Positions 70-509 of a stretch of 536 nt of DNA are shown in pieces. This DNA comes from Escherichia coli. Lineage in GTDB: Bacteria > Pseudomonadota > Gammaproteobacteria > Enterobacterales > Enterobacteriaceae. The position numbers and the translations under genes were made by a program. The notes under the pieces were generated by a model. The model made no database searches and was not told where the DNA came from. It saw nothing but the letters and a program-made list of their open reading frames with translations. The number at the start of each line of letters is the position of its first letter. The first letter of the stretch is position 1. Location of the stretch: the NCBI RefSeq assembly GCF_003334335.1, contig NZ_QOWQ01000173.1. One strand, given 5' to 3'.

Positions 70-509
70 ACTTTGCCCTCAGACTGGCGCGTGAGATGGG
101 AAGACCCGACTGGCGCGCCATGCTTGCCGGGATGACATCCACCGAATATGCCGACTGGCACCGTTTTTACCGCACGCATTATTTTCAGGATACCCAGCTG
201 GATATGCATTTTTCCGGGCTGACGTACGCTGTACTCAGCCTGTTTTTTTGCGATCCGGATATGCATCCCTCTGATTTCAGTCTGCTTGTCCCCCGGCATG
301 AGGAAGAGCAGGTGGAGAGGCCGGATGAGGACAAAATGCTGATGCAGAAAGCGGCAGGACTTGCCGGAGGCGTCCGGTTCGGTGGGGACGGAGGGCGCGA
401 TATTTTATCGTCTGCGGATGTGGCGGATGTCATGGTGGATGATGCCGCATTAATGATGGCTTCAGCGGGGATTCCGGGAGGTGTGAGATATGTCCCAGCC
501 GGTTGGTGA
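1..509 (+). CDS. GT: Tail assembly chaperone G-T fusion made by -1 frameshift (equivalent to join 1..51,51..509), 5' partial
   Basis: After the slip at 45-51 the reading frame continues as ...DDDFSAGK/VFDGELNFALRLAREMGRPDWRAMLAGMTSTEYADWHRFY... to TGA at 507-509. The ATG at 96 has no usable Shine-Dalgarno (only GTGAG immediately abutting it), and the frame is open upstream to base 36. This fits T being made only as a fusion, as in lambda. Confidence 0.78.
45..51 (+). other. -1 programmed ribosomal frameshift slippery heptamer G_GGA_AAG (X_XXY_YYZ) joining G to T
   Basis: GGGAAAG at 45-51 is phased so the zero-frame codons are GGA (46-48) and AAG (49-51), the same heptamer and phasing as the lambda G/GT recoding site. 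The -1 frame has three consecutive stops (27-29, 30-32, 33-35) just upstream, then is open from 36 through 509. The zero frame stops 16 nt downstream, at 67-69. Confidence 0.8.
216..249 (+). terminator. Candidate intrinsic terminator-like hairpin plus U7 tract inside the T coding region (low confidence)
   Basis: GGCTGA (217-222) pairs with TCAGCC (235-240). After a bulged C223, GTAC (224-227) pairs with GTAC (231-234) around a 3-nt loop (228-230). Two nt later comes TTTTTTT (243-249). The same bases encode ...GLTYAVLSLFF..., so the structure may be incidental. Confidence 0.2.
476..481 (+). promoter_or_regulatory. Shine-Dalgarno sequence (GGGAGG) for the tape measure gene
   Basis: GGGAGG at 476-481 lies 8 nt upstream of ATG 490-492, which is good spacing. 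It is embedded in the 3' end of the GT coding sequence. Confidence 0.6.

Follow-up and report, generated by a model that had tools for sequence, protein, structure and literature searches.

The tail assembly chaperone gpGT of phage lambda is the described protein against which this locus is best read, and its interactions are reportedly the subject of Xu et al. 2014. It arises by a -1 frameshift, and its two parts have different partners: the partner of the G part is the tape measure protein, and that of the T part is the major tail protein, which it binds and recruits (PMC5009743; PMC4493119). Frameshifting between G and T of lambda has been described, and G_GGA_AAG is listed as a shift-prone heptamer (PMC5009743). 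For a short repeat such as the one analyzed here, the systems to compare are Streisinger-type slippage hotspots and the contingency loci of Haemophilus, Neisseria and Campylobacter.

The window, by which we mean the whole 536-nt stretch of Escherichia coli DNA that was analyzed, holds a repeat that is like the Streisinger-type hotspots in its head-to-tail arrangement with an exact 8-nt core, in its two-way whole-unit alleles, in their recurrence and in a microhomology deletion nearby, but differs from these hotspots and from microsatellite loci in having two units only and a low mutability, with variants in about 1% of records. With contingency loci it shares repeat-mediated gain and loss of units inside coding sequence, whereas its unit is a multiple of three, which leaves no on/off frameshift switching, its two units contrast with the long arrays found there, and we found no evidence of high-frequency switching for the window repeat. 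A phase-variable contingency locus was thus considered and rejected, since the 9-nt unit keeps the frame, no more than three units were found and variants make up only about 1%.

The window matches the E. coli JE86-ST05 chromosome at 100%, about 1,270 further E. coli records at 99% or more, and the isolated lambdoid phages PhiR12_1 and PhiR12_4 at 99.8%. At the 100%-matching locus (L006), the genes annotated on a single strand are, in order, a phage tail protein, gpG, T and a tape measure protein, and the names annotated beneath the match itself are 'phage tail assembly chaperone G', 'phage tail assembly protein T' and 'phage tail tape measure protein'. The 536 nt span the G/T-H junction of the tail module in a lambda-like prophage of E. 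coli. Of the three forward frames read, frame 1 carries the end of G, closed by a TGA at 66-68; the T segment, with the sequence KVFDGELNFALRLAREMGRPDW..., lies in the -1 frame. By its sequence, this frame appears to be a clear member of the T segment family (PF06223) of the lambda gpGT chaperone, because it combines a Pfam match (Phage_tail_T, ORF residues 14-92, nt 135-371, i-Evalue 5.4e-14) with G-T-H synteny and a G GGA AAG slippery site; among its 198 T homologs, those named at their source are called 'phage tail assembly protein T'. The RefSeq CDS for T runs from the ATG at 96 to the stop at 507-509 (137 aa), and so omits the 16 T-frame codons at nt 48-95 as well as the fusion to G. The features of the window are collected in Table 1.

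Table 1. Positions of the features discussed in the text, in nucleotides of the 536-nt window.
Feature	Position	Strand	Basis or remark
G GGA AAG slippery heptamer, G to GT -1 frameshift	45-51	+	sequence and frames
T reading frame (-1 relative to G)	48-509	+	open 48-506, stop 507-509
C-terminal module copy 1 (EDKMLMQKAAGLAGGVRFG)	327-383	+	profile match 23.3 bits, conditional E 2e-09
18-residue variable spacer (GDGGRDILSSADVADVMV), holds the repeat	384-437	+	column conservation
Repeat unit 1, GCGGATGTG (Ala-Asp-Val)	414-422	+	8/9 identical to unit 2
Repeat unit 2, GCGGATGTC (Ala-Asp-Val)	423-431	+	8/9 identical to unit 1, in frame
Second indel footprint: 12-nt deletion TGGCGGATGTCA (421-432) in JNEC-KY172 (L011)	421-435	+	alignment
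C-terminal module copy 2 (DDAALMMASAGIPGGVRYVP)	438-497	+	profile match 33.9 bits, conditional E 1e-12
Tape measure gene H, start (MSQPVGDLVIDLSLD...)	490-536	+	ATG 490, 20-nt overlap with T end

The original prediction, made from the letters of the window, was of a tandem 9-nt in-frame repeat encoding ADV-ADV in an acidic stretch near the T C-terminus, and both parts of this description hold. The coordinates, the 8/9 identity, the frame and the translation all agree with it: the exact core GCGGATGT (8 nt) recurs 9 nt on, both units share the frame of the ORF at 96-509 ((414-96) mod 3 = 0), and T reads ...LSSADVADVMVDDA... around them, or ...L-S-S-A-D-V-A-D-V-M-V-D-D-A... at the repeat. Within the 137-aa annotated T, the repeat occupies residues 107-112 (residues 123-128 counted from the codon at nt 48) and ends 25 residues short of the C-terminus, and the stretch that bears it has 6 D/E and 1 K/R among its 32 residues. 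By itself the repeat is statistically weak and only marginally unusual, and its significance comes from comparative data only. At least one 8/9 period-9 tandem pair is present in 5.2% of 2000 dinucleotide shuffles and in 5.6% of codon shuffles of the ORF, an equal repeat at any period of 9-15 is found in about 7.5% of shuffles, and Tandem Repeats Finder reported no repeat in the window even at a minimum score of 30. A literature search for the 17-mer GCGGATGTGGCGGATGT found no paper containing it.

To follow copy number across related prophages, the comparison proposed with the original prediction, we made synthetic forms of the window segment with one and with three units and searched these against 5,426 complete E. 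coli genomes. Alleles with one unit more and with one unit fewer were both recovered, and close relatives differ by exactly 9 nt, where constancy of length had been named as the outcome that would speak against slippage. Two genomes, JE86-ST05 and JE86-ST02, match the 3-unit query perfectly (100%) along its full 130 nt; in JE86-ST05 the 3-unit T belongs to a second prophage (B), with the 2-unit window copy on the same chromosome. The 1-unit query found B2.3, O170:H18, 2015C-3905 and 2014C-4135, and it also picked up JNEC-KY172, whose deletion is a different one, of 12 nt. In an alignment of six relatives the Stx2a-converting phages are without exactly 9 nt, in register with the repeat (TCTGC---------GGATGTC; SADVSEDD), and two units are found in PhiR5_1 and in an Stx1 phage (ADVVDV). 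The Stx2a-type 1-unit sequence is present in 11 E. coli records (complete genomes) and in at least 15 Stx2a phage records among those listed with a 527-nt match. A scan of IMG/VR with a degenerate 3-unit pattern returned 70 loci, 69 of them unrelated chance matches and one a T gene (L032), which adds a further 3-unit allele. L032 differs from the JE86 3-unit allele solely upstream of window nt 240, and for this reason probably shares its origin.

Expansion (+9) and contraction (-9) are thus both found at the repeat, as 3-unit alleles (L007, L014 and L032) and 1-unit alleles (L001, L008, L009, L010 and L012), with three units the largest array found. The 12-nt deletion in JNEC-KY172 is flanked by TGG microhomology (421-423 / 433-435) and encodes SADVVDD; a third GGATG lies at 437-441. 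The T ORFs of all variants stay open, with annotated lengths of 134, 137 and 140 aa. Length variants account for 18 of the 1633 records of exact-repeat T types (about 1%). Lambda T served as a control: it has the same spacer length as the window T, with PDVADM replacing ADVADV, and its DNA units (CCGGATGTG and GCGGACATG) are 6/9 alike, compared with 8/9 in the window. When lambda-type T was made into 1- and 3-unit queries, the -9 allele was found in 2 of about 3500 records (0.06%; 14EC007 and 377323_2f), as ASPDMTEDD with a deletion between CGGA microhomologies, and the 3-unit control query found no +9 allele. Length variants are therefore some 15 times rarer by record count in lambda-type T than in the exact-repeat types, and the direction of this contrast (18/1633 vs 2/~3500) fits slippage that depends on repeat identity, though it carries little statistical weight because records are not independent events.

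The haplotypes on which these alleles lie are nearly the same. The 1-unit B2.3 sequence has 3 mismatches to the 2-unit window over about 527 nt, the 3-unit prophage B of JE86-ST05 has 1 mismatch to the window over about 527 nt, and the 1-unit Stx2a phage has 2 mismatches to the 2-unit Z1322HEC0003. The B2.3/window and Stx2a/Z1322HEC0003 backgrounds are themselves about 30 mismatches apart in a variable-site table of 14 alleles, and the differences include sites 2-6 nt downstream (ATGGTG vs AGCGAG) and 15-18 nt upstream of the repeat. These sequences are more simply read as at least two separate -9 events, since the 1-unit state could go back to one event only if a conversion tract shorter than about 30 nt had transferred the deletion and nothing else. 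Across the 536-nt alignment of the 14 alleles, no indels fall outside 414-435. The sharing of the 1-unit allele by O170:H18 and 2015C-3905, like the 3-unit allele on the second contig, L032, may be due to recombination instead of recurrence, because lambdoid phages are mosaic.

The two prophages of JE86-ST05 (L006 at 1221435-1227970 and L007 at 1643833-1650962) are 91% identical over 6.5 kb and carry different V and G, and their T segments differ by the 9-nt unit and 1-2 substitutions. Since they are distinct elements, the 3-unit allele is not an assembly duplicate, and the genome holds two unit-number alleles as co-residents. Near-identical T beside strongly diverged V and G is a mosaic pattern, and suggests exchange between the co-resident prophages.

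Collectively, these data make it highly probable that the repeat is an ordinary replication-slippage hotspot in a tolerant linker of T, at which deletion or addition of 9 nt leaves rare surviving alleles. In replication or misaligned recombination the nascent strand would occasionally re-pair one unit out of register, which would delete or add exactly 9 nt, or one Ala-Asp-Val, and a unit length divisible by three, together with a tolerant spacer, would let the products persist as rare alleles. What slippage predicts is what the alleles present: exact steps, in both directions, on the same haplotype, with recurrence, with microhomology deletions and with fewer variants at the degenerate repeat. 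The slippage origin put forward in the original prediction is thus supported by unit-step alleles both ways on near-identical haplotypes; we infer the mechanism from this allele pattern, and the near-neutrality of the variants from sequence comparison. A tolerance of plus or minus 3 residues in the spacer between modules would likewise be expected from the variants that survive.

The 2-unit state of the window is the common, ancestral length and not a fresh duplication, and any founding duplication is old, because lambda (PDVADM) and T proteins further removed have the two-unit length too. Any such duplication may be older than the split from lambda, as the 6/9 likeness of the lambda units hints. 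The rarity of the variants, at about 1% of records, would fit variants that are nearly neutral, or else weak selection that keeps the spacer at its standard length; the near-constant 18-residue spacer in the lambda-like family suggests some selection on length, and the length variants may be mildly deleterious instead of neutral. The alleles, structure and conservation examined give no sign of a function that belongs to the repeat itself. Beyond being a clean case, in nature, of slippage by whole units (1, 2 and 3 on one haplotype) and a possible minor typing marker for lambdoid or Stx prophages, it matters little.

The description of the repeat as part of a linker is reasonable on three counts: it lies outside the Pfam T domain, it falls where columns are not invariant, and it sits between two conserved modules, at the acidic lead-in to module copy 2. 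In a 29-sequence alignment, there are no invariant or nearly invariant columns between R110 and L135 (numbering from nt 48), and the flanks GGVR and L..S..I.GG.RY are invariant. The spacer varies in sequence by clade and is mostly equal in length. Nearly all of 120 T cluster representatives have the two-unit length, including the lambda type (SPDVADMTEDD) and types at a greater distance (PSGVAEMTEEE and VSDDMRSSTEDE); the exceptions are three 1-unit clusters (P0007, with 219 member sequences, P0051 and P0052) and the +1-residue P0023. This last, a T homolog of 138 aa, reads LSADVEDVTVDDDVAL, one residue longer than the SSADVADVMVDDAAL of the window. An AlphaFold2 model from the 29-sequence alignment gave the spacer a pLDDT of about 30-37 within a model that is poor as a whole (mean 42.7), and a sequence search of the PDB found no relative of solved structure (best E-value 0.13, spurious).

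The position of the repeat, exactly between the two modules, also allows a reading in which the count of ADV units fixes how far apart the GGVR[FY] modules lie and is selected, whether for the partners V (the major tail protein) and H or for escape from a host sensor, so that the variation would be adaptive. In keeping with this, the major tail protein reportedly binds to the T part of gpGT (PMC5009743; PMC4493119), and the 2- and 3-unit prophages of JE86-ST05 carry different V and G proteins. Nevertheless, we consider such tuning of the spacer improbable: tape measure genes measure 2556-2583 nt whatever the unit number, with no visible correlation, the variants (about 1%) are at the tips, on haplotypes that match 2-unit alleles in every other respect, and the one defence sensor reported for tail assembly chaperones binds the N-terminal G core and not T (PMC12803255).

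Somewhat less probable again is that the likeness of the two units is a matter of chance, arising from codon choice in A-D-V-A-D-V, with a mutability no different from that of the neighboring sequence. The shuffles, of which about 5% hold an equal repeat, and the silence of Tandem Repeats Finder are in keeping with this, as is the same length in most relatives. A chance likeness is at odds, however, with the confinement of all indels among the 14 alleles to 414-435, with the register that the -9 and +9 changes keep with the repeat, and with the recurrence of the -9 allele on separate haplotypes.

An idea to which we give slightly less credence still is that the spacer is a tuned ruler, with each GGVR[FY] module contacting a partner, for example two major tail protein subunits, and with ADV steps under selection. 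If this were true, ADV steps would, after mosaic recombination, re-match T to diverged partners, or alternatively would evade a host sensor of T, and the repeat would be a small evolvability device and not neutral noise.

A function at the level of DNA or RNA, as a direct-repeat binding site for a protein or as an mRNA structure modulating translation of H, is very improbable. About 60 nt separate the repeat from the H start codon downstream of it, and a weak hairpin can form between unit 2 and a downstream GCCGCAT, but this hairpin is not significant (z = -1.7, with 12 of 200 shuffles folding equally well), Rfam gives only sub-threshold chance matches, the bases concerned vary between clades (GCA/GCG, GCG/GTG, GACATG in lambda), and the repeat can be halved or extended.

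Finally, sequencing or assembly error, for which the record of phage 204576 with its five single-base deletions in the 536-nt stretch might seem a precedent, can be set aside almost entirely as a source of the length variants, which are clean in-frame 9- and 12-nt changes in many independent complete assemblies, with the Stx2a-type 1-unit allele in 11 E. coli and at least 15 listed Stx2a phage records, 219 member sequences in the 1-unit protein cluster P0007, and the 3-unit allele in two assemblies and one IMG/VR contig. The phage 204576 record itself (L002; CP025907.1 6395-6925) spans 531 nt against the 536 of the window, with five gap positions; one of its single-base deletions falls in a GGGGATTCC run and would break the T frame. 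These gaps are probably sequencing error, or else mark a decaying prophage.

The conserved module that flanks the spacer consists of an acidic lead-in followed by D-x-x-L-M-x-x-A-x-G-I-x-G-G-V-R-[YF]-G. Among 1.84 billion representatives, a profile search brought up no more than 107 relatives, many of them short T proteins that end soon after a single '...acidic...LM..AEGI.GGVRYGP' motif, and most distant T homologs have one copy of the module, at the C-terminus. We built a module profile from 14 single-module tails of these distant homologs, and it matches the window T twice (residues 94-112 and 131-150) and lambda T twice too. In lambda-type T, the conserved C-terminal module of the family is therefore present as a tandem duplication. 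A limited literature search found no published description of this duplication. It is the more useful by-product of the analysis, and may bear on how T engages its partner in tail assembly. One further candidate, a 3346-aa metagenomic protein (P0146) with 23 stretches matching the T profile, was rejected as a compositional false positive and not a relative of T; it consists of 117-aa acidic Ala/Thr-rich tandem repeats, each with GGTRF.

The T and H genes also meet differently in the window and in lambda. The window T ends (VPAGW) 6 residues later than lambda T and overlaps H by 20 nt, compared with 8 nt in lambda. Just upstream of this overlap, the Gly-Gly codons of GGVRY in module copy 2 form a GGAGG (477-481) that is likely the Shine-Dalgarno sequence of H, and the DNA of the GGVRY motif would thus be doubly constrained.
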